Of a stretch of DNA of 64,000 nt, positions 17,435 to 53,187 are shown piece by piece. This stretch comes from Sedimentisphaerales bacterium (GTDB taxonomy: Bacteria > Planctomycetota > Phycisphaerae > Sedimentisphaerales > SM23-30). The translations under genes were made by a program, and so were the position numbers. The DNA is taken from assembly GCA_963666285.1 (NCBI GenBank), contig OY762711.1, one strand, 5' to 3'. Under the pieces are notes generated by a model that was given only the letters and a program-made list of their open reading frames with translations, was not told the DNA's origin and searched no databases. Each line of letters opens with the position of its first letter. Positions within the stretch are counted from its first letter, which is position 1.

Positions 17435-18127
17435 CGACACCTTCACATCATTGGATTTGCCCAATGATGTGCCAGAGTGCGCAGCACGTATTTCCTGGCA
17501 GCTGGCTGCTCGCCGCTGTTGGCTACATTCCTGTTCTACTGCTCTCCTGTCAACTTTCCAGCGACCTTCCGTCGCTCGGCGTCAGCTTTAGAATAAGGTC
17601 CTGTACCGTACGGTACAAGACACCTCAACTCTTACCTCTTACTTTTACCTGTCTTCCCGCTTCCGCTTCGTTCCCGTCCGTATACCGCCGCACCCATTCA
17701 ACGTTCCGCCGTATATTGCCCGCAGCCCGCAATTCCCCGCCGTTCAAATCCATTCCCCTTTTCACCGCCTTCCACCCGCCGCGCTGCCCCGTATATATTC
17801 CGATTACCTCCCGTCACACATTAATTAGTGGTCGCGAAGCGACACCGCAATTCTTCACTCTCAACTCTTCATTCTTCACTTGATTTTTTCAAAGAAAATA
17901 TCATCTCGTTTTTACAACCACCAAAATGCGAAAATCTGAAATCTTTAAAATTATTATCCCGCATTACCCCAACCCTTTACAAATCTTCGGGCCAACCATC
18001 CCGCCACAAAAATCAGCGCACTTTCGACATACCGTCCAACAGTAGAGAGCTAACAAAAAATGAGAACCAACAAAAAACAGCTCTCTCTAAAACATAACAA
18101 CGACGAAAACTTCGTCTTAAACATAAA
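17435..18127 (-). repeat. Long structured non-coding element, copy A (inverted relative to 52554-53187)
   Basis: Reverse complement matches copy B over long stretches, e.g. TTAAGACGAAGTTTTCGTCGTTGTT, CTCTCTACTGTTGGACGGTATGTCGAAAGTGCGCTGATTTT, AATATACGGCGG, CTCTGGCACATCATTGG...CCAATGATGTGAAGGT. Confidence 0.9.
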
Positions 18128-18213
18128 ATATGTTATTGGATTGTAAATTTTTAATATATATCAGTCGATAAACATAGTAATATATAGCGATTACTTAATT
18201 ATAAGGATATATT

Positions 18214-19719
18214 ATGGCTGAATATGTTAAAATAAATAATTTATGTCACTTCGTTTGCAAACAGGTTGAACTTCGCGGCTGGCTATATAACGCCAGGTCG
18301 GGTGGCAAGGTCTTATTTCTTGTTGTCAGGGACGGCACAGGCTTATGTCAGGCCGTTTTCGAAAAAAACGATACTAATGCTGAACTCTTTGACAAGGTCA
18401 AACATTTGGGCCAGGAATCATCTATTACACTTACTGGAACCGTTAAGGAAGAGCCTAGAAGTGTAGGGGGGTATGAGCTGGCCGTTGACAACGTTAACAT
18501 TGTTCACGAAACCTCTGATTATCCTATCACACCCAAAAGTCATGGCATTGATTTTCTGATGAAAAACCGACATCTGCATCTTCGCAGCCAGCGTCAATGG
18601 GCAATCGCTCGTATCAGACACACTATTATCGATGCTATTAGGACTTATTTTAACAGTAATGATTTTATTTTGGTAGATACCCCGATTTTTTCACCTGCGG
18701 CCGGCGAAGAGGAACAGTCACTATTTAATGTCGATTATTTCGGCGAAGATGTGGCACTTTCTCAAACTGGACAGTTATATTTAGAAACAGCGGCAATGAG
18801 TCTAGGAAAAGTTTATTGCTTTGGACCTACCTTTAGGGCGGAAAAGAGTAAAACCAGACGGCATCTTACCGAATTCTGGATGGTTGAGCCGGAAATTTGC
18901 TATGTTGATATAAATGACCTTATGAAAGTTGGCGAAGGTTTAATTTGTGCTATTGTGGATGCTTCAATTCAAAAATGCAGTCATGAGCTCGATATTCTGC
19001 AGCGTGATTTATCTGATTTACAGAAAATTAAGCCTCCTTTTGCTCAGTTAAGCTATAAAGAAGCTGTAGATATGCTTCATAGCACCGACATCTCAGATTG
19101 GCTCGACAGTCAGCTGGAAGCTAAAATTATCGAAAAAAATGAATTAGAAAAAAATATTTTGGAATGGACCGACCAGCAAAATCAGGCCAAAAAGCAATGG
19201 CAGAAAGATAAGCTTGCTGCCCAGATTATTACTGCTAATTCCCAGGTTTCAGAGCTTACCGAGCAAATCGAAAATATGCCAAAACATAAAGAACTTGCTC
19301 TTAACTTTCAATGGGGAAAGGATTTAGGTGGATCTGATGAAACTATTATATCCATGCAGTTTGATACTCCTGTATTTGTCCACCGTTATCCCAAAGATGT
19401 TAAGGCCTTTTATATGAAGCCTGATCCCGATGATTCTTCCGTTGTTTTAAATTTTGATTGCCTTGCTCCTCAGGGTTATGGTGAAATAATTGGCGGTTCT
19501 ATGCGGGAAGAAGACTATCGGGCGCTACATAACCGCATTCAACAGTTAGGTTTTGATCCTGATAACTATAGCTGGTACCTGGATTTAAGAAAATATGGGT
19601 CAGTTCCGCACGGCGGCTTTGGTTTGGGGGTTGAAAGAACTGTCGCCTGGATTACCGGTGCCAAACATATTAGAGAATGTATCGCTTTTCCGAGAATGAT
19701 GGGCAAGGTCTTCCCTTAA
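18214..19719 (+). CDS. asnS: Asparagine--tRNA ligase with ~75-aa helical insertion
   Basis: OB fold RGW...RDGTG, LSQTGQLYLE, FRAEKSKTRRHLTEFWMVEPE, GEIIGGS.RE, PHGGFGLGVER, FPR. Confidence 0.95.
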   Translation: MAEYVKINNLCHFVCKQVELRGWLYNARSGGKVLFLVVRDGTGLCQAVFEKNDTNAELFDKVKHLGQESSITLTGTVKEEPRSVGGYELAVDNVNIVHETSDYPITPKSHGIDFLMKNRHLHLRSQRQWAIARIRHTIIDAIRTYFNSNDFILVDTPIFSPAAGEEEQSLFNVDYFGEDVALSQTGQLYLETAAMSLGKVYCFGPTFRAEKSKTRRHLTEFWMVEPEICYVDINDLMKVGEGLICAIVDASIQKCSHELDILQRDLSDLQKIKPPFAQLSYKEAVDMLHSTDISDWLDSQLEAKIIEKNELEKNILEWTDQQNQAKKQWQKDKLAAQIITANSQVSELTEQIENMPKHKELALNFQWGKDLGGSDETIISMQFDTPVFVHRYPKDVKAFYMKPDPDDSSVVLNFDCLAPQGYGEIIGGSMREEDYRALHNRIQQLGFDPDNYSWYLDLRKYGSVPHGGFGLGVERTVAWITGAKHIRECIAFPRMMGKVFP

Positions 19720-20017
19720 TAGAATTTGGAATAATACTACAAAAGAAATATTTTGCGTATTTTCCCATAATTTTTGTTGTTTTATTATTTTTTGATACAA
19801 AATCGTTAGGTTAAAGCTGATTATTTTGTTATAATGACTCTTAATAAGTGAAAATCAGTAATTTATAAAAGAGAAAAAATTCAATTAATATTATTTTTAA
19901 TATTGACTTTAAGTTTAATATCTGTTATAAATTACTATAGAAGTGATTAAAGTGAGTTGCAGAAAAGGCAATATTTACTAAATGAGAAAACGAACTTTTT
20001 TGGAGGTACGTAAAATT

Positions 20018-20479
20018 ATGAGGATAGGTTTTTTAGCTTTGTTGCTCATAGCTGTAGCAAGCGTAGCGAATGCCGCCCTTTATGAAACTGTCTATGATGA
20101 CAGTTCAGCTAGCTCTAAAAGTGTTATTATATTTAACATTGATAATCAGGGCTTTACAAATGACGGCGCATACGACTGGATCGGCTATGACTTTGAAATC
20201 TTAAGTGGTGGAGAATTTGTTTCTTCTAGTGCTTCAAGTGACATGTTTAGTACTGTTACTGAAGTAGTAGATGGTGGTGGACTGTTGACCAAGCTTGAAT
20301 TTTCAGATGGCACAGTTGCTCCTGGTGAAACAGTCAAATTCTCTTATGATATCGCAGTTGATTTGACTAATGGTCTGTTCGGCGTTCAGCTGGAAAGACA
20401 TGAAGTAGTAGTTCCTGAACCTGCAACTGTTGCTTTGACAGTAATGGGTGCCGGCCTGCTGCTAAGAAGAAAATTCTAA
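20018..20479 (+). CDS. Small PEP-CTERM sorting-domain protein
   Basis: Signal peptide; C-terminal VPEPATVALTVMGAGLLLRRKF; GGAGG before ATG 20018. Confidence 0.9.
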   Translation: MRIGFLALLLIAVASVANAALYETVYDDSSASSKSVIIFNIDNQGFTNDGAYDWIGYDFEILSGGEFVSSSASSDMFSTVTEVVDGGGLLTKLEFSDGTVAPGETVKFSYDIAVDLTNGLFGVQLERHEVVVPEPATVALTVMGAGLLLRRKF

Positions 20480-20501
20480 TATTATAATTTTCAAAAGTAC
20501 T

Positions 20502-20536
20502 AAAGCCGACTGGTAGTATTACTGGTCGGCTTTTTT
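20502..20536 (+). terminator. Rho-independent terminator
   Basis: GCCGACTGGTA...TACTGGTCGGC followed by T6. Confidence 0.8.
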
Positions 20537-20641
20537 ATTTTAAATATCCATATTTACCATGAGCGATAATTTACTTTAAAATATCGCTCTAATCGGTTAT
20601 ATTTTAACGACTTGAAGTGCTTGCTTAAAAGGTAATTATAT

Positions 20642-20953
20642 ATGGATGAGACATTTGAAATTGTTGAGCCTATTGGTAAACGTGTCGTTATTCGCAAGGA
20701 TGAGGATAAAAAAGAGACCAAAGGTGGTATCAGATTGCCGGATAATATTGAGATTCCTACTATCACCGGAAGGATTGTTGCTGTTTCAGCGGAAATAGAA
20801 TCTGACCCAATGGTGCCGTTAAGAAAATATGATAAGGTGCTGTTTAACCCCAAAGGTGCAATTCCAGTTGATTTTGAAGGTACAAACAGGCTGTTTGTAA
20901 TTGAACTTGATAGCGTTGTAGCTGTTTTTCGTAGGGCTGGTTCTGATAACTAA
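20642..20953 (+). CDS. GroES/Cpn10 family protein (orphan paralogue)
   Basis: EPIGKRVVIRK..ETKGGIRLPD...GRIVAV...DKVLF. Confidence 0.8.
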   Translation: MDETFEIVEPIGKRVVIRKDEDKKETKGGIRLPDNIEIPTITGRIVAVSAEIESDPMVPLRKYDKVLFNPKGAIPVDFEGTNRLFVIELDSVVAVFRRAGSDN

Positions 20954-20970
20954 ACATTAGAAAGAATAAT

Positions 20971-21792
20971 ATGGATTTGATTGCAATTGACATTGGTAAT
21001 AGTTCGCTGACAGTAGGGGTATTTGCTGGCGGAGAGCTCAAAGAATCTGCTAGTATTACAAAAGAGGTAATTGCCAATAGTTTGCCGGAGATCTTAATAA
21101 AGTATAGAGAGATTTGTGGCCCTCAGAAATTTGGCGCCAGGACGGTACCAATTGTGGTAAGTTCTGTAAATATTGATAATCTGGCGGCTGTCGAAAAAGT
21201 AACTGTTGATATTTTTAACCAGGATATCCGTCTTGCCGGACGTGATTTTTCTGTTGATATGCCTGTTGGAATTGAAGATAGCAGTACGTTAGGGTCAGAT
21301 AGGCTGCTTACGGCTTTGGCTGCTTTTCAAGTCGTTGGAAAAGCTGTCGTTATTGCTGATTTTGGGACTGCTACCACAATTGATTTGGTAAATGACAGTG
21401 GTATTTTTCTGGGCGGAGTAATTTTTCCTGGTTTGGATTTAGCTTCGCATTGTCTTGATGAGCATACTTCAGCTCTGCCTTATGTTAAGCCGGGAGTTCC
21501 GCTAGAACCTCAGGCTTATGGCACTAATACAGAGAAGGCCATACAAAATGGTGTCTATTATTCTACGATTGGCGCTCTTAGAGAACTGGTAGAGCGTTAT
21601 GCGACTGAGCTGGGTTATTGGCCTCAGGTTGTTGCGACAGGGGGGTATGCTAATATGATTTCTCAGAAATCTGAAATAATAGAAAATGTTGTTCCCGGAC
21701 TATGTCTTAACGGCTTGTTTTTAGCGTATTCTGGGTGGCGTAGCCACCAGGAGTCACCGGAAGATATATTCTCAAGTGAAGATATAGAATAA
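20971..21792 (+). CDS. coaX: Type III pantothenate kinase
   Basis: IDIGNS, SSV, LGSDR, DFGTATTID, GG.I.PG, ATGG. Confidence 0.92.
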   Translation: MDLIAIDIGNSSLTVGVFAGGELKESASITKEVIANSLPEILIKYREICGPQKFGARTVPIVVSSVNIDNLAAVEKVTVDIFNQDIRLAGRDFSVDMPVGIEDSSTLGSDRLLTALAAFQVVGKAVVIADFGTATTIDLVNDSGIFLGGVIFPGLDLASHCLDEHTSALPYVKPGVPLEPQAYGTNTEKAIQNGVYYSTIGALRELVERYATELGYWPQVVATGGYANMISQKSEIIENVVPGLCLNGLFLAYSGWRSHQESPEDIFSSEDIE

Positions 21793-22949
21793 TGTTAGAT
21801 ATTTGCGCAAATTCTTTGCGAGGAGGCCTGCTTACACCATCTGGCTATGGTGGTATTGCAATATTGCGTATTGCAGGACGAGGCTCTCTTGATTTAATAG
21901 GTAATATATTTGTACCATATCAGAGTATCTCTATCCAGGATATGCTTAATGACCATATTTATCTGGGTGAAATTAGGGAGGCAGATCAGGTTATAGACCA
22001 GGTTATGCTGGTTTTGGATAGGCAAAACTCTGTTTTTGAGGTTCATTGTCATGGCGGTCCGCGAATAGTTCAAAGGTTGCTCATTTTGTTCGAAAGTTTA
22101 GGAGTTGATGTTATATCATGGCATAATGCTGATCCTGAACCTTCAATTTTAGCTGAAGTTGAGTTTTTTCTGTCTTTCTGCAAATCTGAAATTGCGGTAA
22201 AAGCTATATCATGTCAGGCAAGTTCTGGATTAAGCTCATGGTGTAAACAAACAATTGAGATTCTTGCAACAGGTAATGCAGATATAAGTGGCTTATTATC
22301 CCAGATAAACCAGATTGCATTTACCTGGAATACTGCACAGTTATTATTATATCCGCCGAAAATATTTATCATCGGCCCTCCTAATGCCGGTAAAAGCGCT
22401 CTCGCTAATGCTTTAACTGGAAGGAGCCAGTCTCTGGTCTCCAGTATTCCCGGCACAACCCGGGATTGGACTTCAGAATTAACTGAGATGGCCGGCATTG
22501 CGGTTGAATTGGTAGATACGGCAGGTAAAAGAGTTACTGACGACCATTTTGAAAGCGTCTCACTGCAACGTCTGACCGTTCAGGTATCGCATGCCAAGCT
22601 TTTTATACTGCTAATTCCAGCTGATTATCCATCAAATGTAGAGCGTTTATATGATGAACAGGTTGATGGTTTGCCTGATGATGCAAAAGTCATAACAGTG
22701 ATAAGTAAGTCTGACTTGTCAGAAAGTCACAAGTACTCAGGTTTAGCTGACTTAGCTGTATCTGCTGTAGAGGGTACTGGTTTGATCCCGCTTATGAAAC
22801 TTGTAGCAGAACGGCTTGGATTTGGTGATGAGTTTGATTGCAGGAAGCCGCTAATATTTACACAGAGACAGTATGAGCTTGTTAATAAAATGACTAACAT
22901 CAGTAGTTTAGAGTCTTTACAAACGCTCTTATATGAGATCAAAGGTTAG
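21792..22949 (+). CDS. MnmE/TrmE-like GTPase, short form
   Basis: TPSGYGGIAILR, EVHCHGG, GPPNAGKS, PGTTRD, DTAG; lacks the C-terminal FCxGK. Confidence 0.8.
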   Translation: MLDICANSLRGGLLTPSGYGGIAILRIAGRGSLDLIGNIFVPYQSISIQDMLNDHIYLGEIREADQVIDQVMLVLDRQNSVFEVHCHGGPRIVQRLLILFESLGVDVISWHNADPEPSILAEVEFFLSFCKSEIAVKAISCQASSGLSSWCKQTIEILATGNADISGLLSQINQIAFTWNTAQLLLYPPKIFIIGPPNAGKSALANALTGRSQSLVSSIPGTTRDWTSELTEMAGIAVELVDTAGKRVTDDHFESVSLQRLTVQVSHAKLFILLIPADYPSNVERLYDEQVDGLPDDAKVITVISKSDLSESHKYSGLADLAVSAVEGTGLIPLMKLVAERLGFGDEFDCRKPLIFTQRQYELVNKMTNISSLESLQTLLYEIKG

Positions 22950-22957
22950 TTGATACA

Positions 22958-23677
22958 TTAACTGCCAGATACAATTTCTATTGCCTCTGATACTGAAAAT
23001 TTGTTTTCGTAAAGAGCTCTACCGGTAATAATTCCTTCTAGAGGAAGTGATCGCAGATTTTTAATATCGTCCAGAGAACCAACACCGCCTGAAGCAATGA
23101 CAGGGATTTTACAATTCTCAGCTAACTCTTTTGTTGATTCTATATTAGGTCCAATTAACATTCCATCTTTGGCTATGTCTGTATAAACAATAGCAGCAAG
23201 AGGGAGAGAGTTAACTTCACCTGCCATTTCTAATACAGTCATTTCACCTGTTACTGTCCATCCATGAGTAGCTATATAACCGTCTTTTGCATCCATGCCA
23301 AGTACTATTTTACCAGGATATTTGTTGACCATGGAGTAAAACCAATCTTGCTGTTCAAAAGCTTTTGTGCCAATAATCACTCTATTAATTCCGGTATCAA
23401 GTAATTTACTTATGGCCTCTTCATTGCGTATACCGCCGCCAACTTCAATGTTAAGAGAAGTATTCTGACGTATGTCCTTAAGAACAGCGAAGTTATACTG
23501 ATCACCATGTAAAGCACCGTCCAGATCAACTACATGCAGCCATTTTGCTCCTTGTTCTTCAAACAATTGGGCTTGAGAGACGGGAGAGTCATTATAATTG
23601 ATCTGACGATCGTAATCTCCTTGGATGAGCCTTACACATTTACCATCTCTAAGATCAATAGCAGGCAATATATACAT
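22958..23677 (-). CDS. hisA: ProFAR isomerase
   Basis: ILPAIDLRDGKCVRL.QGD, HVVDLDGA, GGGIR, TDIAKDG, ASGGV. Confidence 0.95.
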   Translation of the reverse strand: MYILPAIDLRDGKCVRLIQGDYDRQINYNDSPVSQAQLFEEQGAKWLHVVDLDGALHGDQYNFAVLKDIRQNTSLNIEVGGGIRNEEAISKLLDTGINRVIIGTKAFEQQDWFYSMVNKYPGKIVLGMDAKDGYIATHGWTVTGEMTVLEMAGEVNSLPLAAIVYTDIAKDGMLIGPNIESTKELAENCKIPVIASGGVGSLDDIKNLRSLPLEGIITGRALYENKFSVSEAIEIVSGS

Positions 23678-23711
23678 AAATAATCTTTCTTTTAATAACA
23701 GTTAAATTACA

Positions 23712-24383
23712 CTATTTTTCATTGGAATTTGCATATTCGCTTAATCCGCTGCTGTCAGCTTTAGTAATGATCTCAATAGCTTCCTTTGGATCATCGGTTA
23801 AATCATAAAGACTGATATCTTCAGGTGATATTGTCTTTTCTTTCAACATGGATGATTTAACCCAATCAAACAGGCCTGACCAGTAATCTTTGCCCATTAC
23901 AACAACAGGGAAATGCCGCATTTTTAGTGTTTGCATCAGAGTTAGCGATTCGAAGAGTTCGTCAAGTGTTCCAAAACCGCCTGGCAGTATAATAAATCCC
24001 CTTGCATATTTTGTAAACATAGTTTTGCGTGCGAAAAAGTATTTAAAATGCAACTCAAGAGTTTGATAATCATTGGGCTTTTGCTCCATTGGCAACTCAA
24101 TATTGAGACCTGCACTTTTACCGCCAGCTTCAAATGCACCTTTATTGGCAGCTTCCATAATTCCGCCACCGCCGCCAGTGATAACAGCAAATCCTGCTTT
24201 AACTGCTTCTGTTGCAGTTTCTTCAGCCATTTTATAATAAGGGCTGTCAGGACTTGTTCTTGCTGAACCGAAGATTGAAATGGCAGGTCCGAGGTAGCAT
24301 AGTTCTTCAAACCCTTCGATAAATTCGGCCATAATACGAAAAATTCGCCATGTTTCTTTATTTAATTGTTCATTTATTGGCAT
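23712..24383 (-). CDS. LOG family Rossmann-fold protein (TIGR00730-like)
   Basis: FGSAR, TGGGGGIMEAAN, YFFARK, PGGFGTLDE. Confidence 0.9.
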   Translation of the reverse strand: MPINEQLNKETWRIFRIMAEFIEGFEELCYLGPAISIFGSARTSPDSPYYKMAEETATEAVKAGFAVITGGGGGIMEAANKGAFEAGGKSAGLNIELPMEQKPNDYQTLELHFKYFFARKTMFTKYARGFIILPGGFGTLDELFESLTLMQTLKMRHFPVVVMGKDYWSGLFDWVKSSMLKEKTISPEDISLYDLTDDPKEAIEIITKADSSGLSEYANSNEK

Positions 24384-25071
24384 TTATATCTCCCTTTTTA
24401 GTTATTGTTTCATAAAGGAAATCTATGACTTCCTGAATATTCATATTGGAGGTATCAACTATAAGAGCATCTTGAGCAACTTTAAGAGCACCTGTGTCAC
24501 GATTGATATCGGCATGATCTCTTTGTATTTGAGACTCTAAAATTTCGTTATAATTAGCATTTATCCCTTTTTGTAACATTTGCTCGTGACGGCGTTTAGC
24601 TCTAACTTCAGGAAGAGCGTCCAGATAGAATTTAAACTTGGCATCTGGAAATACCACTGTAGTTTGATCTCTACCTTCAGTAACTAGTGATTCCAGTTGT
24701 TTGCCAAGTTCCTGCTGCTGTTTGACCAGGATTTCTCTAATTTTGGGGTTAGAAGCGATAGATTTTGAAGCATTTGTGACTTCTTGGGTTCGTATCGCAA
24801 AGGCAATATCCTGTCCATTATCCAATTTATCTTTGCCATCAATTGTTAGTGTGCTAATTCCATTGATGTTAGTAAAAGACAGTTTAGTTTGTTTAGCAAT
24901 TTTAACTAGATTATCAGGATTGGAAAAATCAACTTTAGCTTCGATAGCAGCAAGTGTAATTCCTCTATACATAGCTCCGGTATCCAGGTAAGAGATGTTA
25001 AGTTTTTGAGCCAGTTTTTTGGCAATTGTGCTTTTACCGCTACCAGCGGGACCATCTATTGCTATTATCAT
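24370..25071 (-). CDS. cmk: Cytidylate kinase
   Basis: IAIDGPAGSGKST, YLDTGAMYR, EGRD.TTVVFPDA. Confidence 0.95.
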   Translation of the reverse strand: MIIAIDGPAGSGKSTIAKKLAQKLNISYLDTGAMYRGITLAAIEAKVDFSNPDNLVKIAKQTKLSFTNINGISTLTIDGKDKLDNGQDIAFAIRTQEVTNASKSIASNPKIREILVKQQQELGKQLESLVTEGRDQTTVVFPDAKFKFYLDALPEVRAKRRHEQMLQKGINANYNEILESQIQRDHADINRDTGALKVAQDALIVDTSNMNIQEVIDFLYETITKKGDINANK

Positions 25072-25095
25072 TATAAACCCTGACGATACATACAG

Positions 25096-25138
25096 AAATA
25101 AAAACAGACGGATGAATGACAGCCGCCTGTTTTTATTT
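25096..25138 (-). terminator. Terminator-like hairpin after the pilM cluster
   Basis: AAATAAAAACAG.CGG...CCG.CTGTTTTTATTT inverted repeat. Confidence 0.65.
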
Positions 25139-25153
25139 AATTACTTATTTTAA

Positions 25154-26866: not shown

Positions 26867-26941
26867 TATCTATATCCTGATTTAAGCTTTATGTTTTACA
26901 GCATTGATTAATTACATAATGTCTAAAAGACTGTACCGGGA

Positions 26942-28318: not shown

Positions 28319-28372
28319 ATCTGTCTTGTCTTTCGTTGAATATATAAATTGTTTATCATTATGATGTCAGCT

Positions 28373-32563: not shown

Positions 32564-32581
32564 AATCCTGATTTTGAGATG

Positions 32582-33445: not shown

Positions 33446-33464
33446 GATTAAGGGGCCTTACAAG

Positions 33465-33830: not shown

Positions 33831-33839
33831 AATTGTGTA

Positions 33840-34853: not shown

Positions 34854-34884
34854 CTAATTAATCCCTGGAATACAGAATTGAAAA

Positions 34885-35373: not shown

Positions 35374-35380
35374 AGTGAGG

Positions 35381-38801: not shown

Positions 38802-38839
38802 AACAAATCGATTTTATTGACTGAAGTATTTTTAAATAA

Positions 38840-39040: not shown

Positions 39041-39042
39041 TG

Positions 39043-39351: not shown

Positions 39352-39353
39352 TT

Positions 39354-39986: not shown

Positions 39987-40053
39987 AATCCATTTCCAGC
40001 TATAATAAGTCCTTTATTATTGTTTGCCTAAATTACCGTACCGGTTTCAAAGA

Positions 40054-41181: not shown

Positions 41182-41364
41182 TTCACAGCCCTTCGGTTAA
41201 ATAAGCAAATCTTTTTTGCGGGTAATTAAATCGCTGCATAATATATTTGCTCTATTTTTATATAACAACCGCAAACCACATTAGGTAATGCGGTTGCGGT
41301 CATTATTCTAAAATCTATAAATTATCTAATCATAAAGTCAGTTCTATCGCCTATCTTTATGTGA

Positions 41365-43011
<1,647 letters not shown>

Positions 43012-43052
43012 CTAAATATGAAAATATGATTTATACTCGGTTAGCTTTAAAC

Positions 43053-43340
43053 TTATTCAATTACTGCAAGAATATCTGACTCACGCAGGATAACATATTT
43101 TTCGCCGGAAATCTCTACTTCCGTACCTGAATACTTGCCGTAGAATACTTCATCACCTTTTTTGACGCTCAATGCAGCCCGTTCGCCGCTATCCAGGAGT
43201 TTGCCTGGGCCGAGAAATTCAACTTTGCCACGTTGTGGTTTTTCCTGGGCGCTGCCTGGCAGGACAATTCCGCCGGCTGTCATTGCTTCTGCTTCACACT
43301 GTTTTACGATTACTCTATCATCTAAAGGTTTAATAGCCAT
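43053..43340 (-). CDS. groES: Co-chaperonin GroES
   Basis: IKPLDDRV, GGIVLP.SAQEKP, YSGTEV, ESDILA. Confidence 0.97.
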   Translation of the reverse strand: MAIKPLDDRVIVKQCEAEAMTAGGIVLPGSAQEKPQRGKVEFLGPGKLLDSGERAALSVKKGDEVFYGKYSGTEVEISGEKYVILRESDILAVIE

Positions 43341-43409
43341 TGTATTTATCTCCGTTATATTTTTATGTTTGTTATATATTATTTGGTTTCAGTTTATTAT
43401 GGGCGTAGC

Positions 43410-45140
<1,731 letters not shown>

Positions 45141-45207
45141 TTAAGTACTTATATCATTTTTACGGTAGTGTGTCCGAATGTATGCACATCCTGACGACTA
45201 TCTTACA

Positions 45208-45223
45208 TGCAAGATTTATGCCA
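45208..45223 (-). promoter_or_regulatory. Sigma-54 -24/-12 promoter of the chaperone operon
   Basis: Minus strand TGGCATAAATCTTGCA = GG-N10-GC, about 105 bp upstream of groEL. Confidence 0.7.
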
Positions 45224-45310
45224 TTTGTGGCTTGTAGTCTAACTCTTTGTTAAGTGCTTTGTATGCAATAGATTACGCATATTAGTGAAATGTTGCCCTT
45301 CATTTAGGTA

Positions 45311-45355
45311 CTGCCATACTGACAATCTGTCACCTGACTCTGCCACATGTGGCAG
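45311..45355. promoter_or_regulatory. Putative enhancer-binding-protein sites (TGNCA boxes)
   Basis: TGCCA-N3-TGACA-N3-TGTCA and palindrome CTGCCACATGTGGCAG, 90-130 bp upstream of the -24 element. Confidence 0.55.
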
Positions 45356-45608
45356 GAAGCTATAAACCGGCATATATGGGGGATTAAAATTTGATTTGAT
45401 ATACCGAAAATGCTATAGTTTAAGTTATTCTTTTAAGGAATTATGCAAAGGGGATCTTAATAAACAGCCTTTTGAGTTCAAATTTACTATTTATAGGTGT
45501 GTGCCTTAATTCGTTATTTTATAATGTGTTATATTTTTTTGTTTTTTGGACTCTAAATTACTCATTATTATGGGTTTATAAATATAGGTGACCACTGGAA
45601 ATTGCTTC

Positions 45609-45734
45609 TGATGCGATAGTTTAAGATTTTGGTTGCTGACAAGGAACATAAAATCGTGCATATTGTGCTATATTCACTGTTTTATGTGACGCATGTCAGC
45701 AGGCAAAAGTAAAACTAGTCGCTCAAAATGAATT
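45609..45734 (+). repeat. ~125-bp palindromic element P, copy 1
   Basis: TGCTGACA...ACATAAAA...TTTTATGT...TGTCAGCA; its reverse complement recurs at 56243-56370. Confidence 0.85.
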
Positions 45735-45814
45735 TTAAGTGGTTGCCAATATACAGAGTACTATCGCACATAGAGAGAAAAGAAAATATTACCCTATCAG
45801 TCAAGGAAATCCTG

Positions 45815-48754
45815 ATGTGTCAGTTACCGTTGAGGAAATTAGTTATTGTTTCTGCTTTTGCAGCTTATATATGTTTATCATCAATTGCTTTAGCAGATGT
45901 TGTCTGGTCCGATGAATTTGATGGTGATACTATTGATTTAAACAAATGGACCTATGATGTTGGTACCGGCAGCTGGGGTTGGGGCAACGGAGAACTGGAA
46001 AATTACACAGCACGCTCTGAAAATGCATATATTGAAGATGGCAGCCTTGTAATCGAGGCCAGGCGCGAAAATTATAATGGCAGCTCTTTTACTTCGGCTC
46101 GCCTCAAAACCATTGGCCGTATGTCTTTTACCTATGGTACCCTTGAAGCAAGAATAAAAATACCAGACCTTGCAAACGGTCTCTGGCCGGCATTCTGGCT
46201 GCTTGGGGACAATATTGGATCACAGGGATGGCCGAAATGTGGTGAGGTTGATATTCTTGAAATGGGCATGGCCGAAGCAATTTCTGCCGGCACGCAAAAT
46301 AAACGACATAATTCTGGTGCGTTCTGGGACTATCAGGACAATCTTGCCAATTATGCTCTGGCTGTAAATGCCCCGGCTGTTCTTAACGATGATTATCATC
46401 TATACAAGCTTGAATGGTCTCCAAATGCTTTAATTGCATATGTTGATAATGTTCAGTGTTGGGCAATGACAATAAATAATCCGGAATCGAGCAGCCTTGA
46501 AGAATTTCACAGGCCTATGCATATACTGCTAAATCTTGCTGTTGGCGGTCAGAACTTTGTTGATATAACTGACCCTGCAGCAATAACGGCTCCATTGCCT
46601 GCCAGGATGTATATTGACTGGGTTAGGCTTTCTGATAATGGTTTTACTCAGCTGCAAACAGACAATACTGTGGAACATGGCAATTTTGGAATCTTTACCG
46701 AAACTACTTCTGTCGAAAATCAGGTTAATTACGGTACCGATGCCGATCTTTATATATGGAACAATATGAATGCTGCTGAAGATACACCTTTTGAAGGTGA
46801 TAAAGCCTGGGCATTTAGTGTTGCTGCCGGTAATTGGTGGGGGATGGGCGTTGCATGCTCGGTTGACCGCAATATGAATAATTATTCTGATGGTTATCTT
46901 CATCTGAATATGAAAACTGCTTCAACCCAAACATTCAGGATTGGCATTAGCAGTACTGCTGCCGGAGAAGGATGGCTGAGTTTCGTTGATGGTGCTGAGC
47001 AGTTCGGTTTGGTTCGCGATGGTAGCTGGCATGAAGTACTTATTCCGTTGAATCGGTTCGCCAATGTTGACTTTCCTACTATTAACCAGCTTTTCATGAT
47101 CGCCGGTGATAGCGGCTCGGCATTTGATATCGCTTTTGATAATGTTTACTGGAGTGAAAGTCTGCCGCGGCCGGTACCGGCAAACGGCAGTTATGGTATT
47201 TTCACCGAAAATTCTGGGCATCAGGATGCAGGGGCCTTTGAACTTGGGTCTGATGGCAATTTCTTTATCTGGGAAAACACTCTCGTTGCTGCTTCCGGTT
47301 CTCCTTTCGATGGTGAAAATTCCATTGCCTTGCAGTCAGCTCCGGGGCTCAGTTGGTTTGGGGCTGCTTTTACTGCCAATATCAAACACAATTTGACCGC
47401 ATTTCGCTATCCGGAAAGTCGCCTGCATTTTGCTATGAAAACCAGTTCTACCGCTTCCTTCCAGGTTGGAATCAAAAGTGGCAATGTCGATGATATCGGT
47501 CAAAAATGGATTACTTTCCAGAATGGTAACGACCCGTACGGATTCGCCAGGGATGGCAATTGGCATGAAATAGATATTCCAATGTCTGATATTGCCGGTG
47601 ATGTGGATCTTTCTCAGGTTAGCCAGATTTTTGAAATTCTCGGCGTCTCTGGCCCTATCGGTGCATTCGAAATTGATGATATATGTTTTACTGGTGGTGG
47701 CGAACCGATTCTGGATGATTCCGAATCTAATAGATTGCCAACTGTTTCTATTACCTGTCCCATCGACAATGCAGTATTTGCTCCTGCTTCTGATATAATT
47801 ATTAATGCTTCGGCAAGCGATATCGACGGCGTTGTGACTAAGGTGGAATTCTATGAAGGGGACAAATTACTGGCAGCTGATTATACCGAACCCTATTCTT
47901 TTACATGGCAGAATGTTGTTGAAGGTACCTATACAATTACTGCAAAGGCAACTGATGATGAAGATGCTGTAACGACTTCATCTTCTGTTAGAGTTTTCGT
48001 TGGAAATCAAGAATTGGCTGCTATTGAAATTTCACCTTTGCACTGTTCGCTTTCTGTTGGAGATACTGAGCAGTTTACGGCATCGGGACTCGATCAGTAT
48101 AATTTGCCTGTTGCTGCTGATATTGCCTGGTCTGTTTCTGGTGGTGGTTCGATAGATAATGATGGTTTGTTTACCGCTTCTTATCCCGGCGGACCTTTTG
48201 TGATCACTGCAAAATCTGGTAGTGTTACTGCTAATGTAAATGTTACTGTTTCTATGCCGGCCGGGGTATGTACCGGTGGACCGGCAAACGGTGATTATAC
48301 TTATGAAGTTAGTGGAGATAATGAAAACCCGACTTTTACTTTTATTCCTGGCTATACCGGTGTTGGCGACAGCCTTGTGCTTCTTTATTACGGTAATACA
48401 CAGAATGGAGTTTTCCCTGGTGTATTCGTTAAGCCTAACAAGCCTTATTCTCTTACTGCTGCCGAAGGAGAGACTGTCTATTTCTACTATACCTACAGTG
48501 TTCCCGAGGGTGGTCAGCGAAATACATCCAATGAACGTCATTTCATAACTGTCGGCCAGTGTGGCGGCGCTGTTTCTGGTGATATTACTGGCGATGGATA
48601 TATTGATCTGGATGATCTTGGCATGCTGGCTTATTACTGGCTCAGGTCGGATTGTAACATAAATAATGATTATTGTCTCGGTGCTGATACTCAACCGGAC
48701 AGCAAAGTTAACCTGTTGGATTTGGCTTCTATTTCTGCTGCCTGGCTTCAATAA
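45815..48754 (+). CDS. Secreted multimodular GH16 beta-1,3-glucanase/laminarinase-like protein (GH16, two tandem CBM-like repeats, Ig-like domains, dockerin-like tail)
   Basis: WSDEFDG, WGNGELE.Y, SARL, WPAFW, EVDILE, NLAVGG; ATG 45815 follows AAGGA (the ORF-track start 45728 lies in element P). Confidence 0.88.
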   Translation: MCQLPLRKLVIVSAFAAYICLSSIALADVVWSDEFDGDTIDLNKWTYDVGTGSWGWGNGELENYTARSENAYIEDGSLVIEARRENYNGSSFTSARLKTIGRMSFTYGTLEARIKIPDLANGLWPAFWLLGDNIGSQGWPKCGEVDILEMGMAEAISAGTQNKRHNSGAFWDYQDNLANYALAVNAPAVLNDDYHLYKLEWSPNALIAYVDNVQCWAMTINNPESSSLEEFHRPMHILLNLAVGGQNFVDITDPAAITAPLPARMYIDWVRLSDNGFTQLQTDNTVEHGNFGIFTETTSVENQVNYGTDADLYIWNNMNAAEDTPFEGDKAWAFSVAAGNWWGMGVACSVDRNMNNYSDGYLHLNMKTASTQTFRIGISSTAAGEGWLSFVDGAEQFGLVRDGSWHEVLIPLNRFANVDFPTINQLFMIAGDSGSAFDIAFDNVYWSESLPRPVPANGSYGIFTENSGHQDAGAFELGSDGNFFIWENTLVAASGSPFDGENSIALQSAPGLSWFGAAFTANIKHNLTAFRYPESRLHFAMKTSSTASFQVGIKSGNVDDIGQKWITFQNGNDPYGFARDGNWHEIDIPMSDIAGDVDLSQVSQIFEILGVSGPIGAFEIDDICFTGGGEPILDDSESNRLPTVSITCPIDNAVFAPASDIIINASASDIDGVVTKVEFYEGDKLLAADYTEPYSFTWQNVVEGTYTITAKATDDEDAVTTSSSVRVFVGNQELAAIEISPLHCSLSVGDTEQFTASGLDQYNLPVAADIAWSVSGGGSIDNDGLFTASYPGGPFVITAKSGSVTANVNVTVSMPAGVCTGGPANGDYTYEVSGDNENPTFTFIPGYTGVGDSLVLLYYGNTQNGVFPGVFVKPNKPYSLTAAEGETVYFYYTYSVPEGGQRNTSNERHFITVGQCGGAVSGDITGDGYIDLDDLGMLAYYWLRSDCNINNDYCLGADTQPDSKVNLLDLASISAAWLQ

Positions 48755-49081
48755 CTGGAATTTGTCAGAAAACTTCCTTTTATCCATATCCTGCTCAATC
48801 TAAACCTTTTCTTCCGTAAGTCATTGGATTTTTTGTGTTTATGCCAGTTGTCTACGGCTTTTGCTCTACCTTGATTTCTTTTTTCGATTTTTCAGGTGCA
48901 TTTTTCTACATTTAGCGCAGATACACTATATAGAGAGAGATTATATGTGTGATTATTGGACCTGTCGCTGGAGCTCCATATCAACTGCATATAGTCTATT
49001 CTTTATTATCATGCCGTATTTGGATATTTGTATCTTTCATATTGAAATAAAGCTGAAGAGATTTTGGAAAGGTTAGAAGAG

Positions 49082-52000
49082 ATGAATTATATCAGAAATG
49101 TATTGGCCGTTGCGCTCGTTTCAGGATTTTTCCTGTTAAGTACGGCAATGGGAGCTATTACGTATATTGATGCTGAGCTTGGTAATACCACAGTTAATGG
49201 TGAAGCTCTTTCTAAAGGTGTAAATTATTCTACCAGCTACGCTGATATTGATAATTTGTGGGGGTGGCGTACTAATCGAACAGATGTTAATGGTGCTGGT
49301 GTATGGGTAAGTGACGGTGGTTCTGATGGTAGTGTGTCTGATCGGGAAAATACCGAACCTCTTAAAATTAATATTTCTCTTCCGCAGCCGGGAATCTATA
49401 AACTTTATGCTATTATTATGAACAATAACAGCGGTTCAGGCCATTGGGATGTTGCCGCTCGCATTGGTGATTCTGGTTACTTTTCTTCTTATAATAAATA
49501 CAATGATGCTGTATCTAAGGCAATTGCGTCTGACTTTATCGGCACTGTAAAAGTTTCCGGCAGTGGTGATATGACTTTCAAAGTTATGATTGGTACATAT
49601 TCTGCACATACCGCTAATGAGATTGTTAGTATATATATAAATGGATTGGACGGCTGGGACACTCAGACCGGGCTGGACCAGAGAACTCGCTTTGATGGCT
49701 TAGGCTATGAGAAAGTTTCTGATTTGCAGCCGTTCGCTCAAAATGTATTTCCTGCTGATGGCACAAATGATGTGTTAAGTGTTAATCCGGTACTGCAATG
49801 GCTGGCTGGTAACGATGCTGCCGGTCATAATGTCTATCTAAGCACTGATATGGATTCTGTTGAATTTCGTAGTGATATAAATGCAAGTACTGTTGTTGAT
49901 ATGGCGGATCTTGCTTTATTGGCTTCTGATTGGCAGAAAAGCTCAGCTCTGGCTTCCGGCTCTTCAGATTTAGATCAATCAGGTACTATCGATATTGGTG
50001 ATCTTTCCGTTCTGGCAGTTGACTGGCTTGCATCCGCCGGGATTACCTTAAAAGGTTCATTCCCTTTAGCAACAAATACTTTTGATGCCGGTCTGCTTTC
50101 TCCCGACCAGACTTATTACTGGCGAATCGATGAAGTTGGCAGTCAGGATATTACAAAGGGTGATATCTGGGAATTCAAAACTTTCAAAGGTGATGGTTTA
50201 ACAGCATATATATATGATGATATGTACCTGAGTGACTTAAAGGTTACTCGGGTTGATAGCCGGGTTAGTTTTAACTGGGCCCAGGGGTCGCCCGATCCGT
50301 CTGTTGATAGCGAAACTTTTTCAATTGCCTGGAAAGGCGGAGTTATTGTCCCGGAAGAAGGTGAATATACTTTTTATACTAATTCGGATGACGGATTAAG
50401 GCTTTATGTTAATGATTTGCTTATTATTGATCACTGGTCTGGTCAAAGCCTGACCGAACACAGCGGCAATGTTTTTCTCAGGCCGGGAACAGTCTATCCT
50501 ATTCGCCTCGAATATTATGATAACACTGGTTCTGCTGCTATGTATTTGTCATGGTCTGGACCTGGCATAACCAAGCAGATTATTCCTTCTGAATACCTCG
50601 CTTCAACAGTAGCTGAAGTTCGGCCAAATGATATGTGGGTCATCGATTTGGGGTCGATGCCTACTGCGATGCGTTTTACCGCTCTCACCTTGCAAGGTCT
50701 GGTAGCAAAAGATAAGCCTGAGATTCTTGTCAAGCAGGGCGGTTTGACAAGTTATATCAGGACTCAAATGGAGCAGGAGGGAACTGTTTTTCATGACAAC
50801 ACCTCGGTATGGTGGCTCTTGAATAAATACAGAGACTATATTGATGGTATTGTTGTTTGCAGTTCGGACTTGAACAGTATAAACTGCGCCACATCTCTTT
50901 GCGGCCCGATGCGTGCGATTGGTGTATATGCATCTAATCTTGAAGCAGTCCAGGCTCGTACCGGATTACCTGTTCTGGCTGATGTTCAGGGTCTCTCTGA
51001 AGCTGATATTTTTGAAACTTATAAAGACCTATTTGATAAGGAAGTGCTTGTTGATGTCAACAAGATTGATTTCCTGCGAGATATTTCAATCACTCGAAAT
51101 GCATTCACCTTTTATAATGTTGAATCTGCTGCTCGCAGGCAATATATTGCTGATCTAACTTCTCAGGGACTTGTTCTGGGTTGGGGCAGCAACGCCGAGT
51201 ATAACTGGATAAAAGATGTCAGCTCTGCTAATGCAGCTGGTGTCCCTGCTGACTGGTGTAAGAATCTTTCTACCCTGTCAAAACTTAAAACTTCGATTCC
51301 AAAGCCGCCGCGTAGGTATCCTGAACCGGTTAAAGATGGTGAACGAATTATCGCTTTCTCGATGAGTGATGGTGATAATCTGCAAATTATGGCTGGTGGC
51401 GCTATAAATGATAATATTTTCTTTGGTAACGAACATCGCGGTTCATTCCCAATGTCGTGGGAATTCCCGCCTTCTATGGGATATTTTGTTCCAAGAGGTG
51501 TTCGCAGTTTCTATGGCGAAGCAACTACTGGCGAAAATCTTGATTGCTTTATTGCCGGGCCGAGTGGTGCCGGTTATGCTTTCCACTGCTATATGCCGGG
51601 TAGTCATACATTTGCAAAAAATACCGGCCAATCTATGAAATTATGTGGTCTTACTGTTGCTTCTCTTATCAATGATAATAGTGGTAGCATGGCTGATACT
51701 GACCAGTTCCTTGAACGACCTGAAATAATGGGTGTTGTTTATAAGGACTGGGTTCCTTATAACAGGCGAAACGGTGCCATATACTGGCACAACGGAAAAC
51801 CATGCGTCTCTTACAAGTTTTTGTTGTGGGGCGGCACGGTTGGCGATCCATCTAACTTAGGTGACTGGGAAACAGTTTCCGAAGGGATTGCCGCCATGCC
51901 ATCTTCTCCTGCAACTGATCAGGGCAGTTATGCCCTCATAAATGCTAATGCCTGGTCTTTCGGCGATTATGGCGGTCCGATGCAGGCTATTGTTAACACA

Positions 52001-52111
52001 ATTGAATTGTTACCGGAAAATACCAGGTTAGTTACCGTCGAAGAGCTTATTATTCTTCTTCGCAATAACTTCGGTGACTCAATTACGGAAGAGGAATATT
52101 TGGGTATGTAA
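49082..52111 (+). CDS. Secreted GxGYxYP-family putative glycoside hydrolase with PA14 and dockerin-like domains
   Basis: PA14 (FSIAW.G, SDDG.RL, IRLEYY), LQGLVA, SDGDNLQ, GPSGAGY; signal peptide from ATG 49082. Confidence 0.8.
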   Translation: MNYIRNVLAVALVSGFFLLSTAMGAITYIDAELGNTTVNGEALSKGVNYSTSYADIDNLWGWRTNRTDVNGAGVWVSDGGSDGSVSDRENTEPLKINISLPQPGIYKLYAIIMNNNSGSGHWDVAARIGDSGYFSSYNKYNDAVSKAIASDFIGTVKVSGSGDMTFKVMIGTYSAHTANEIVSIYINGLDGWDTQTGLDQRTRFDGLGYEKVSDLQPFAQNVFPADGTNDVLSVNPVLQWLAGNDAAGHNVYLSTDMDSVEFRSDINASTVVDMADLALLASDWQKSSALASGSSDLDQSGTIDIGDLSVLAVDWLASAGITLKGSFPLATNTFDAGLLSPDQTYYWRIDEVGSQDITKGDIWEFKTFKGDGLTAYIYDDMYLSDLKVTRVDSRVSFNWAQGSPDPSVDSETFSIAWKGGVIVPEEGEYTFYTNSDDGLRLYVNDLLIIDHWSGQSLTEHSGNVFLRPGTVYPIRLEYYDNTGSAAMYLSWSGPGITKQIIPSEYLASTVAEVRPNDMWVIDLGSMPTAMRFTALTLQGLVAKDKPEILVKQGGLTSYIRTQMEQEGTVFHDNTSVWWLLNKYRDYIDGIVVCSSDLNSINCATSLCGPMRAIGVYASNLEAVQARTGLPVLADVQGLSEADIFETYKDLFDKEVLVDVNKIDFLRDISITRNAFTFYNVESAARRQYIADLTSQGLVLGWGSNAEYNWIKDVSSANAAGVPADWCKNLSTLSKLKTSIPKPPRRYPEPVKDGERIIAFSMSDGDNLQIMAGGAINDNIFFGNEHRGSFPMSWEFPPSMGYFVPRGVRSFYGEATTGENLDCFIAGPSGAGYAFHCYMPGSHTFAKNTGQSMKLCGLTVASLINDNSGSMADTDQFLERPEIMGVVYKDWVPYNRRNGAIYWHNGKPCVSYKFLLWGGTVGDPSNLGDWETVSEGIAAMPSSPATDQGSYALINANAWSFGDYGGPMQAIVNTIELLPENTRLVTVEELIILLRNNFGDSITEEEYLGM

Positions 52112-52181
52112 TTTTAGCAAAGGTTTTTTGTAATCGCCAATTTAAATAGTACCACACATTATTTTAGCGACTACAATACTG

Positions 52182-52217
52182 GCGAGGTAATGGATACGTT
52201 CATGCCTCGCTTTTTTT
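52182..52217 (+). terminator. Rho-independent terminator
   Basis: GCGAGGTA...TGCCTCGC followed by T7. Confidence 0.7.
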
Positions 52218-52384
52218 ATTAATTTACCATCTTTTTCTTCATTGACATTTTTGCTGTAATTAGTATTTTAGTATTACAGTATCGTAGTATCGTACAGTAA
52301 TATTTGAACAATAAACTTTATTTGACTTAAATTTTATTATATTTATACTGTCAAGTCTATTAATTTTGAACACAAGTATTATTT

Positions 52385-52458
52385 GCGTCAGTAGCTCAGC
52401 TGGATAGAGTACCGGATTTCTAATCCGGCGGTCACAGGTTCGAATTCTGTCTGACGTG
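52385..52458 (+). tRNA. tRNA-Arg (anticodon TCT), CCA not encoded
   Basis: Acceptor GCGTCAG/CTGACGT, D arm GCTC..GAGT, anticodon arm CCGGA-TTTCTAA-TCCGG, T loop GGTTCGAAT. Confidence 0.93.
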
Positions 52459-52465
52459 TTTCATC

Positions 52466-52521
52466 AAAGCCCTGTTTTTGACCTAAAATCGCTGATTTTG
52501 GTTCAGAGTCAGGGCTTTTTT
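52466..52521 (+). terminator. Long terminator hairpin after the tRNA
   Basis: AAAGCCCTG...CAGGGCTTTTTT. Confidence 0.7.
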
Positions 52522-52553
52522 AATATCAATTATTCAGTTTTTATTGAGCGTTG

Positions 52554-53187
52554 TTTATATTTAAGACGAAGTTTTCGTCGTTGTTAAGTTTTATCGAGAG
52601 CTGGTTTTTGCTGGTTCTCATTTTTTGTCGGCTCTCTACTGTTGGACGGTATGTCGAAAGTGCGCTGATTTTTTTGGTGTGATGGTTGGCTTGGAAGTTT
52701 GTAAAGTGTTGAGGAGAAGCGGGATAATGATTTTGGAATAATTATATTTTCGCGTTTTGGTGGATGTAAAAACGCGGTGATTTTTTCAAAGAAAAAATCA
52801 AGTGAAGAATTACGGTGTTGCTTCGCGACGACTAATTGATGGGTAACGGAGGGTGTGCGGGATATATACGGGGAAACGCGGCGGGTGGACGGCGGCGAAA
52901 AGAGGTACGTATTTGAACGGTGGTGAATTGCAGGCTGCGGACAATATACGGCGGGACGTTGAATGGTTACGGCGGTATACGGCGGTATACGGACGGGAAC
53001 GGAGCGGAAACGCGACGAGCTACGCTAAATGAAAAATGAATAATTAAAAGTGAAAAATTAAGGTGTTCGCCTAGCGGCTCACAACTTGTTTAAAATTAGA
53101 ACAGATGACAGTGGAACAGTAGGAAGATAAAAACGTGCTTTGCGCTCTGGCACATCATTGGAAAAGTCCAATGATGTGAAGGTAGCG
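52554..53187 (+). repeat. Long structured non-coding element, copy B
   Basis: Inverted homologue of 17435-18127; carries an extra 10-bp GGCGGTATAC duplication. Confidence 0.9.

Follow-up and report, generated by a model that had tools for sequence, protein, structure and literature searches.

Organization and distribution of the repeat

The window considered here is a 64,000-nucleotide stretch of contig OY762711.1 from a Sedimentisphaerales bacterium of the planctomycete class Phycisphaerae (GenBank assembly GCA_963666285.1; this genome is denoted G000, and two congeners G001 and G003). It contains two inverted copies of a gene-less repeat: copy A (17435-18127, minus strand), which lies back-to-back with asnS (from 18214, plus strand), and copy B (52554-53187, plus strand), which follows a tRNA-Arg gene (52384-52459), in the placement given by an earlier note on this DNA. 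The homology that the note proposed between them holds, with 79.9% identity over 487 bp, but the pair represents only 2 of the 31 copies that the genome search it recommended recovers. Each intact copy has a conserved "head", and at each such head begins a 10-50 kb stretch in which the head's own G-rich strand has gained purines.

The head is approximately 480 bp long. The 31 heads, a count that leaves out one weak 52-bp match, comprise 30 full copies and one truncated at ~190 bp, and a further 38-bp head stub is found elsewhere in the genome. All 31 are intergenic and they occur on both strands, with 19 of the 31 placed on the leading strand; the full copies share 78-92% pairwise identity, and many positions are invariant across all 30. 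The left end is sharp and lies ~25 bp outside the start given in the earlier note (at 52528 in copy B; it is degenerate in copy A). Collinearity between copies ends after ~480 bp and gives way to a shuffled mosaic tail, which differs in every copy and consists of short hairpin modules and runs of 7- and 9-mers, with copies of IS3 and IS110 insertion sequences (IS) inserted in the tails. The tail modules are also found in ~200 headless clusters, and within a cluster they nearly always occupy a single strand. One truncated head (G000:C1:3076594-3076830) is followed by what resembles the left end of a further head in inverted orientation, a junction that a deletion fusing two converging copies could have left.

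In copy A, the conserved head (17670-18127, minus strand) includes the hairpin GACGAA/TTCGTC (18116-18102), the stem GAGAGCTG/TAGCTCTC (18085-18045) and the motif GTCGAAAGTGCG (18028-18017), after which come a third hairpin, a swappable module made of a heptamer and a hairpin, and an oriented RCGG tract (17650-17820, minus strand; 16 ACGG/GCGG words per 150 bp), the last being a feature common to 36 unrelated arrays. The mosaic tail (17300-17650, minus strand) contains GGTG-hairpin-TTTTAAA modules, heptamer runs and a CACATCATTGG/CCAATGATGTG hairpin. The head of copy B (52528-53010, plus strand) has its left-end motif from 52528, the hairpin at 52565-52579, the stem at 52596-52636, GTCGAAAGTGCG at 52653-52664 and an RCGG tract at ~52835-53010 (17 words per 150 bp), and its tail (53010-53530, plus strand) includes a second long module with GTAAGTTG...TGGGCGGACCAG. 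The TATACGG units and all of the hairpins named in the earlier note are present, as is GTCGAAAGTGCG, and the 12-mer GTCRAAAGTGCG, which it had likened to the right end of the R1 repeat, matches in reversed orientation the end of a repeat with over 100 copies that is probably R1.

The heads show a pattern of variation indicative of exchange between copies. Linkage among 91 informative sites in the 30 heads falls from a mean r2 of 0.40 at 1-5 bp to 0.14 at 6-15 bp and to at most 0.06 beyond (permutation p=0.0005 for the decay within heads), and four-gamete conflicts rise with distance from 38% to ~81%. Because linkage decays with distance in this manner, we conclude from the alignment that head copies swap very short patches, shorter than ~30 bp; recurrent mutation could add four-gamete conflicts but not the decay with distance, and exchange is accordingly the preferred explanation.

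Outside this genome the repeat is nearly absent. Searches for head homologs in 40 relatives returned only 25-56-bp matches in 4 genomes, and a hairpin 16-mer with 27 matches in this genome has 0-5 in each of 400 genomes of the class. No exact motif match was found in metagenome or viral contigs, no head match in plasmid or phage collections, and nothing was found with a head profile in 800 kb of congener DNA (the congener sample consists of 0.8 Mb each of G001 and G003, 1.6 Mb in total). By the measure of these searches, the 31 dispersed copies are species-specific.

One-sided purine domains at the heads

Compositional skew was measured at four-fold sites and corrected for gene strand and replichore. 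All 30 intact heads show a purine excess on their G-rich strand (30/30 positive; mean +0.099 downstream, -0.013 upstream), so that each begins a one-sided compositional domain, which supports the suggestion in the earlier note of a cis-acting DNA platform, here a polar one from which something starts and proceeds outward. The purine-excess profile starts from ~0 between -6 and -4 kb, climbs over the 3 kb before the head to +0.09 near it, remains at +0.09 to +0.11 out to 16 kb downstream and falls to 0.01 by 56-60 kb; at 8-12 kb downstream it is positive for 30/31 copies. Random points oriented by the local skew are symmetric (0.056 and 0.054), and the corrected G-over-C version of the measure gives z~5 against 200 random placements, with 29/31 copies following the trend. 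In two truncated copies that lack the RCGG tract, the skew stays at ~0 as far as 16 kb downstream.

The domains are distinct from the strand biases of both replication and transcription. On the element strand the base signature is G 1.26, A 1.15, C 0.79 and T 0.81, and neither the strand of the gene nor the replichore of the head alters it. The replichore skew of this genome enriches the leading strand in G+T, whereas the domain strand is rich in G+A. The octamer GGGCAGGG, which we take to be an FtsK-orienting polar sequence (KOPS) word, is distributed 82:7 by replichore and 22:28 by domain. A secondary oriC-type origin at the heads was rejected on both of these counts. Coding strands are overall pyrimidine-rich (0.44 purine), the domain bias is about twice the coding-strand effect, and 48% of the downstream genes are on the same strand as the element. 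The bias extends to protein composition: amino-acid use differs between the two orientations, with a log ratio of +0.16 for Glu and -0.16 for His and Gln.

Orthologs in the congeners indicate where the skew originated. In 216 ortholog pairs, the purine content of the gene in this genome follows the skew of its neighbors with r=0.81, whereas the corresponding value for the congener ortholog is r=0.00; nadC, for instance, has a purine content of 0.65 here against 0.29 in G003. As the congener orthologs lack the same pattern, the domain skew arose in place.

Within the window, the domain downstream of copy A occupies 1-16729 (minus strand), where the genes of at least 150 amino acids (aa) all show, at four-fold sites, an excess of purines on the minus strand, with values of -0.05 to -0.30 in the plus-strand reading; it extends ~15 kb beyond the window and includes fba, nadC and proC. 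A ramp of the same sign lies upstream of this copy (18214-20479, minus strand), with -0.16 in asnS, -0.09 in the next gene and ~0 from 21 kb on, and the skew then stays near zero over 21-45 kb. The domain downstream of copy B (53822-64000, plus strand) has values of +0.06 to +0.22, every gene there being purine-rich on the plus strand, and carries genes of the ECF sigma, FecR-like, PEP-CTERM and glycoside hydrolase types. Two large glycoside-hydrolase-like genes to the left of tRNA-Arg (45728-52111) are purine-rich on the minus strand (-0.14), and a search found no RCGG tract at the start of that domain.

Other start families, congeners and oriented repeats

Of 62 sharp upward steps in the skew, 11 occur no more than 6 kb from a head, against ~3.6 expected, and the corresponding count for sharp downward steps is 0 of 38. 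Since only 11 of the 62 upward steps are near heads, the heads are best seen as one of several families of domain starts. Other start families at some of the sharp steps have a ~300-bp tract dense in ACGG/GCGG. Among 36 non-coding RCGG tracts other than those of the heads, 34 are purine-positive downstream, a count made after removal of two non-coding-flagged tracts that resemble short genes, while coding RCGG tracts have a more symmetric skew (0.091 and 0.043). A decay model based on all 66 sites (30 heads and 36 tracts) follows the observed skew along the chromosome with r=0.64.

The congener G003 has an unrelated head of its own, present in 9 copies. Seven of these were outside the discovery set; in all seven the skew is positive between 5 and 12 kb downstream (+0.06 to +0.18) and negative between 12 and 4 kb upstream. 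The G003 head (e.g. L101:10168-10250) bears paired AATGTACATT palindromes 32 bp apart, an arrangement with 22 occurrences against 2 for a reversed control. At 2 of the 9 G003 sites, the neighboring genes map next to an array in G000, too few cases to call conservation of position.

Repeats inserted in the domains are themselves oriented. Four repeat families are distributed 85:1, 1:40, 1:14 and 2:30 by domain polarity, as against 33:80, 9:50, 7:12 and 11:23 by replichore, and among insertion sequences IS3 shows 7:2 and IS110 is mostly aligned with the domains. The family with the 85:1 orientation along the purine strand is the ~210-bp repeat, probably R1, that carries the head's 12-mer reversed; among 126 copies, 56 are found downstream of an array on the same strand at a distance of up to 40 kb, and 1 is so placed relative to an array on the opposite strand. 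Two copies of this repeat, which has imperfect inverted ends and more than 100 copies genome-wide, are found in the window (3101-3299 and 6020-6204, minus strand).

A possible one-way process starting at the heads

Given their geometry, the domains call for something that sets out from the element in a single direction, affects one strand and ends at a variable distance. Our preferred reading, held tentatively, is that the copies may be start sites of a one-way single-strand DNA process on the G-rich strand, apart from normal replication. The head would be nicked or primed on its G-rich strand, and this strand would then be re-made or displaced downstream, independently of the replication fork. 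On this reading the element would cause the skew and single-stranded DNA would be the intermediate; the ~3-kb upstream ramp might correspond to resection or unwinding behind the start, and short single strands might drive the patchwork among heads and fix the orientation of inserting repeats. A process at the DNA level is favored because the bias is indifferent to gene direction and has an upstream ramp, and because a conserved promoter is lacking, insertions are oriented and exchange involves short patches, although each of these links is an inference.

Several observations weigh against this reading. Sharp upward steps without a head number 51 of 62. If the two dropped gene-like RCGG tracts, both of which are negative, are counted, the proportion of positive tracts becomes 34/38. 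In G003 only 5 of the 7 new copies are positive at +0.5-5 kb, and its heads have no RCGG tract, so that this tract is not universal; G001, for its part, shows little domain structure (root-mean-square skew of 0.038 versus 0.070 in G003). Mutation biased toward purines was looked for directly and did not appear: the private changes in repeat copies, compiled with one 70%-diverged IS copy excluded, include 65 pyrimidine-to-purine (Y>R) and 86 purine-to-pyrimidine (R>Y) changes (ratio 0.88, p=0.46); of the individual types C>G is raised (14 vs 8, p=0.03 uncorrected) and T>G lowered (6 vs 16, p=0.03). Protein identity to congeners is no lower inside the domains (p=0.61). Deamination of single-stranded DNA gives C>T, according to the available text of PMC3269016, and the loss of T seen here differs from that signature; simple deamination is rejected, as T falls on the domain strand. 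Finally, a MobA/MobL relaxase (PF03389), a TrwB-type coupling protein (PF10412) and the Pfam Rep_trans family were not found in this 97% complete genome, in a search limited to these families, and a helper might be present only for a time. The head contains AAGTGCG, which may be like a MOB-Q nick site; it is not fixed in G003 heads.

Candidate enzymes are encoded in the genome, albeit with no link to the heads: IS200-like Y1 genes, one RAYT-like gene and group II-type reverse transcriptases, and further a NusG paralog between one back-to-back pair, four-helix-bundle genes and one three-copy element. Contig depth is ~20% higher downstream than upstream of copy B (two runs, one sample); being from a single locus, it is not counted as evidence. 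Another run, X3, was set aside as a probable proximity-ligation library, its depth being uneven and its reads having chimeric joints at GATC.

A broader proposal, which we regard as possible but more doubtful than the start-site reading itself, is that a second chromosome-wide process operates beside replication. It would use 60-70 oriented, gene-less start sites at which one strand is nicked or primed and then re-made, displaced or exported over 10-50 kb; it might thereby rewrite the base composition of core genes, orient every incoming repeat and IS and use short single strands to remix its own start sites; from one sister species to the other the start sequence would be replaced outright.

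Alternative explanations

An unlikely explanation, yet the one that fares best among the alternatives, is that transcription from the head yields a long, untranslated RNA (or an R-loop) on the G-rich strand that resists termination, and that selection has favored avoidance of Rho in the DNA downstream, whatever the direction of its genes. Ranked by frequency on the element strand, the bases run G>A>T>C, which matches two features of Rho targets in Bacillus subtilis, namely excess of C over G and richness in T, as far as the available text of PMC13323073 describes them, and the absence of an excess of Y>R mutations fits selection. The left end also has, on the C-rich strand, an rrn-type boxB-boxA-like arrangement of a hairpin followed by a boxA-like word, as found before both probe-found 16S genes. 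However, this word is on the strand opposite to the one that would be transcribed and faces away from the domain, is exact in 6 of 30 heads and within one mismatch in 14 of the 30 examined, and is accompanied by no conserved promoter. A sigma-70 match of 11/12 in copy B was considered as a candidate promoter and rejected, as it is not kept across heads: among the 30 heads, matches of at least 9/12 occur in 3 leftward and 8 rightward, and none is conserved. A promoter would also leave the 3-kb upstream ramp unexplained, and about half of the downstream coding DNA, core genes included, would be read antisense. Moreover, the depletion depends on the 5' neighbor, with T before C being kept after a purine, which is less like simple avoidance of YC. 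The boxA-like word itself precedes the 16S genes in rRNA leaders at 1183406 and 1450849, and also occurs at G000:C1:3246261.

It is rather improbable that the element does no more than mark, or gather at, starts that something else determines for the domains, in which case its being G-rich and oriented would be a result and not a cause. This would accommodate the 51 sharp steps without a head, the difference in start sequences between families and species, and the orientation of all repeat families by the domains. Against it, the skew is one-sided at heads while it is symmetric at random oriented points and more symmetric at coding RCGG tracts, the two truncated copies have no skew, and the many positions invariant across the 30 heads argue for a function of the head.

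Scarcely more improbable is the idea that homologous DNA with the head as its fixed end invades in single-stranded form, from the sister chromosome or from another cell via phage or uptake, with mismatch repair that misses some mismatch types biasing the outcome toward purines. C-C mismatches escape repair, and C>G is the sole raised change; the patchwork among copies, the presence of three phage-like ~65-kb contigs and of pilM and comM-like genes, and the 91% DNA identity of fba to G003 at 5.6 kb downstream of copy A are likewise in keeping with such an origin. On the other hand, one transferred gene is an anecdote, and orthologs with at least 90% aa identity show no enrichment in domains (1/100 inside versus 5/384 outside). 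No rise is seen in T>A, C>A or T>G, and the RCGG words are not Chi-like. An array of Chi sites for AddAB was rejected on word frequencies, as ACGG (1.04) and GCGG (1.46) in neutral blocks are outside the top words. An AddA-like nuclease domain is present in the genome, and AGCGG and GAAGCGG are given as Chi-like words elsewhere in the available part of 10.1101/2021.07.08.451572.

A very improbable alternative is that the repeat is a non-autonomous transposon, or the end of an island, that seeds accessory DNA or flips the enclosed 34 kb. The dispersal of the 31 species-specific copies, their sharp left end, the paucity of shared genes in the first 5 kb downstream and the IS3 and IS110 insertions in the tails speak for it. 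Yet a fixed right end is absent, and an inverted left end occurs in 2/30 copies (with at most 5 mismatches), which also tells against a miniature inverted-repeat transposable element; none of the 20 tyrosine-recombinase matches is within 20 kb of an intact head, and no integrase or relaxase is found among 92 flanking proteins of 28 other copies. Core genes lie downstream, and the 34-kb interval has the normal skew of its replichore.

The gene neighborhoods bear on this directly. The claim that both window copies point outward into accessory DNA fails for copy A, which faces the core genes fba, nadC and proC, although it is weakly upheld in that the first 0.5-5 kb downstream of heads are poor in shared genes. 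Genes with close orthologs make up 9.5% genome-wide, judged against the congener sample; downstream of heads they account for 4% (3/75) at 0.5-5 kb and 14% (24/169) at 5-15 kb, and upstream for 8-12%. The deficit at 0.5-5 kb has p=0.12 for heads alone and p=0.003 when pooled with 36 similar arrays. These counts suggest that a short accessory patch often follows a head, while the domain itself runs through core genes. Nucleation of island growth, as envisaged in the earlier note, is not supported because of the shared genes at 5-15 kb and because the skew has been imposed on resident orthologs. Nor does the interval between the window copies show the mark of a long-standing inversion process: its keto skew is +0.057, versus +0.043 +/- 0.028 for the replichore, and it encodes housekeeping functions (asnS, hisF, cmk, thiC, grpE, dnaJ and two groEL). 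Among the read joints listed, from placements that never spanned both window copies together, none connects the flanks of A and B. Going by gene content and skew, the 34-kb interval is neither an island nor an old inversion.

That the repeat is a multi-copy gene for a large structured non-coding RNA, also proposed earlier, is highly improbable: the three main hairpins are 98% paired with variable pairs wobble-compatible on the G-rich strand, but 0/24 pairs change on both sides, linkage is broken within 30 bp and an RNA gene would leave the 50-kb domain unexplained. The substitutions that had been described as preserving pairing turn out, without exception, to be wobble changes on one side of a pair. 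Covariation scores 0.061 as compared with 0.063 for shuffled alignments, two-sided changes affect 1/50 predicted pairs in one sequence, and folding z-scores range from +1.4 to -2.0; the heads are young and patchy, which lowers the power of the covariation test. In the window only tRNA is matched at the gathering threshold by Rfam 15, including the large RNAs GOLLD, ROOL, HEARO and OLE, and two other head copies give 0 matches at E<=0.1. The lack of two-sided covariation and of an Rfam match thus leaves a structured RNA unsupported.

A decayed transposase or gene was likewise considered and rejected: the open reading frames of the element have 0 matches to Pfam, PHROG or NCBIfam in either copy, in line with the earlier note's failure to see a transposase or integrase, and there is no conserved frame, with the longest open stretch varying from 54 to 160 aa and 6/12 deletions shifting the frame. 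Further classes of site fared no better. For an integron attI/attC array, the two best-scoring of 20 integrases are XerC and XerD, and the downstream genes show the 48% same-strand proportion given above. A Xer dif/pdif site is matched by 2/31 heads with a loose pattern of two 11-bp arms and a 6-bp center, and the spacer length varies. Canonical G-quadruplexes are not a feature of the heads, as 0 of 25 genome-wide motifs occur at one.

Comparison with known systems

The following comparisons refer to the available portions of the papers cited. A close likeness in architecture is to repetitive extragenic palindromes (REPs) and bacterial interspersed mosaic elements (BIMEs) associated with RAYT (PMC2817692), which are also extragenic mosaics of hairpin modules with IS3/IS110-family insertions. 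However, REPs alternate in orientation in BIMEs, whereas the modules here are almost all on one strand per cluster, and the present system also has a fixed 480-bp head with a 10-50 kb compositional domain after it, something that portion does not describe. The sole RAYT-like gene of this genome scores 62.7 against a cut-off of 80 and is outside the listed module clusters. The intergenic mosaic elements of Neisseria (NIMEs), built of dRS3 and RS (PMC1797815), are comparable as dynamic intergenic mosaics that attract elements and have been proposed to promote recombination of neighboring genes; they consist of inverted 20-bp dRS3 pairs around spacers, in contrast to the polar array with a fixed head seen here, and the portion available describes no strand-skew domain. 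The intergenic TAACTGA heptamer repeats (PMC4679880) resemble the present system in their tandem heptamer runs between genes, which here form just one tail module, and no head or skew domain is described for them in that text.

Among processes, an integrated origin of transfer (oriT) mobilized in trans, or Hfr-like transfer (PMC5704250), shares with the preferred reading a gene-less cis site, the processing of one strand one way and an expected gradient. It differs in that there are ~66 sites across the chromosome here and not one per element, and in that the MobA/MobL relaxase and TrwB-type coupling protein were not found. Run-off replication in Bartonella (PMC2697382) is similar in that extra DNA is made from a point within the chromosome and the effect declines with distance, with phage-like elements present; there a single bidirectional origin lies at a phage helicase, unlike the many one-sided, gene-less sites here, which are known from base composition and not from amplification. 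The Rho-driven purine bias of runaway transcription (PMC13323073) has the same one-strand preference, with less C than G and less T, but it follows the coding strand, whereas the bias described here follows the element, in a genome whose coding strands have the 0.44 purine content noted above.

In bacteria, strand bias is usually traced to replication or transcription, by the available account in PMC3269016. No description of repeat-anchored, one-sided purine domains was found in the literature searched, which took in few subscription journals and no supplements. As far as that literature reaches, the repeat-anchored domains are a real, unexplained and previously undescribed system. Their significance is that of a third strand bias, which starts at defined repeats, ignores the direction of replication and of genes, and alters synonymous sites as well as the use of amino acids across a large part of the chromosome. 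As each head supplies an exact position and a direction for the process, it is directly testable, and the heads may explain the oriented heptamer and hairpin repeats of such bacteria.

Further observations in the window and elsewhere

Beyond the tail of copy A, the segment 16820-17243 (minus strand) contains an RHS-core-like remnant together with pieces of genome-wide oriented repeats. The remnant (17046-17243, minus strand) spans 65 codons, its likeness being read from the translation, with no family match, and a related stretch is found at G000:C1:3803735-3803991. The upstream neighbors of asnS differ in G001 and G003, and synteny is poor on both sides. Among the sequences scanned, those most similar to asnS belong to Planctomycetota. 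The fba gene (11377-12551), 5.6 kb downstream of copy A, has its 91% DNA identity to G003 over 1175 bp, and is the only non-rRNA stretch of at least 300 bp above 90% in the 1.6-Mb congener sample; on this identity, it is likely to reflect a recent transfer between species.

The genome also includes the three related ~65-kb phage-like contigs (G000:C2, C3 and C4), each of which encodes an integrase, while DnaB is present in one and a DprA-like gene in one; none of the three carries a head. The tRNA-Arg gene and ~100 bp upstream of it (52330-52460) are repeated at G000:C1:2695018-2695223, near the GC-skew maximum. A NusG paralog is back-to-back with a domain-start array in both species (G000:C1:248955-249608 and G003:C1:4121180-4121404), the two arrays being unrelated in sequence.

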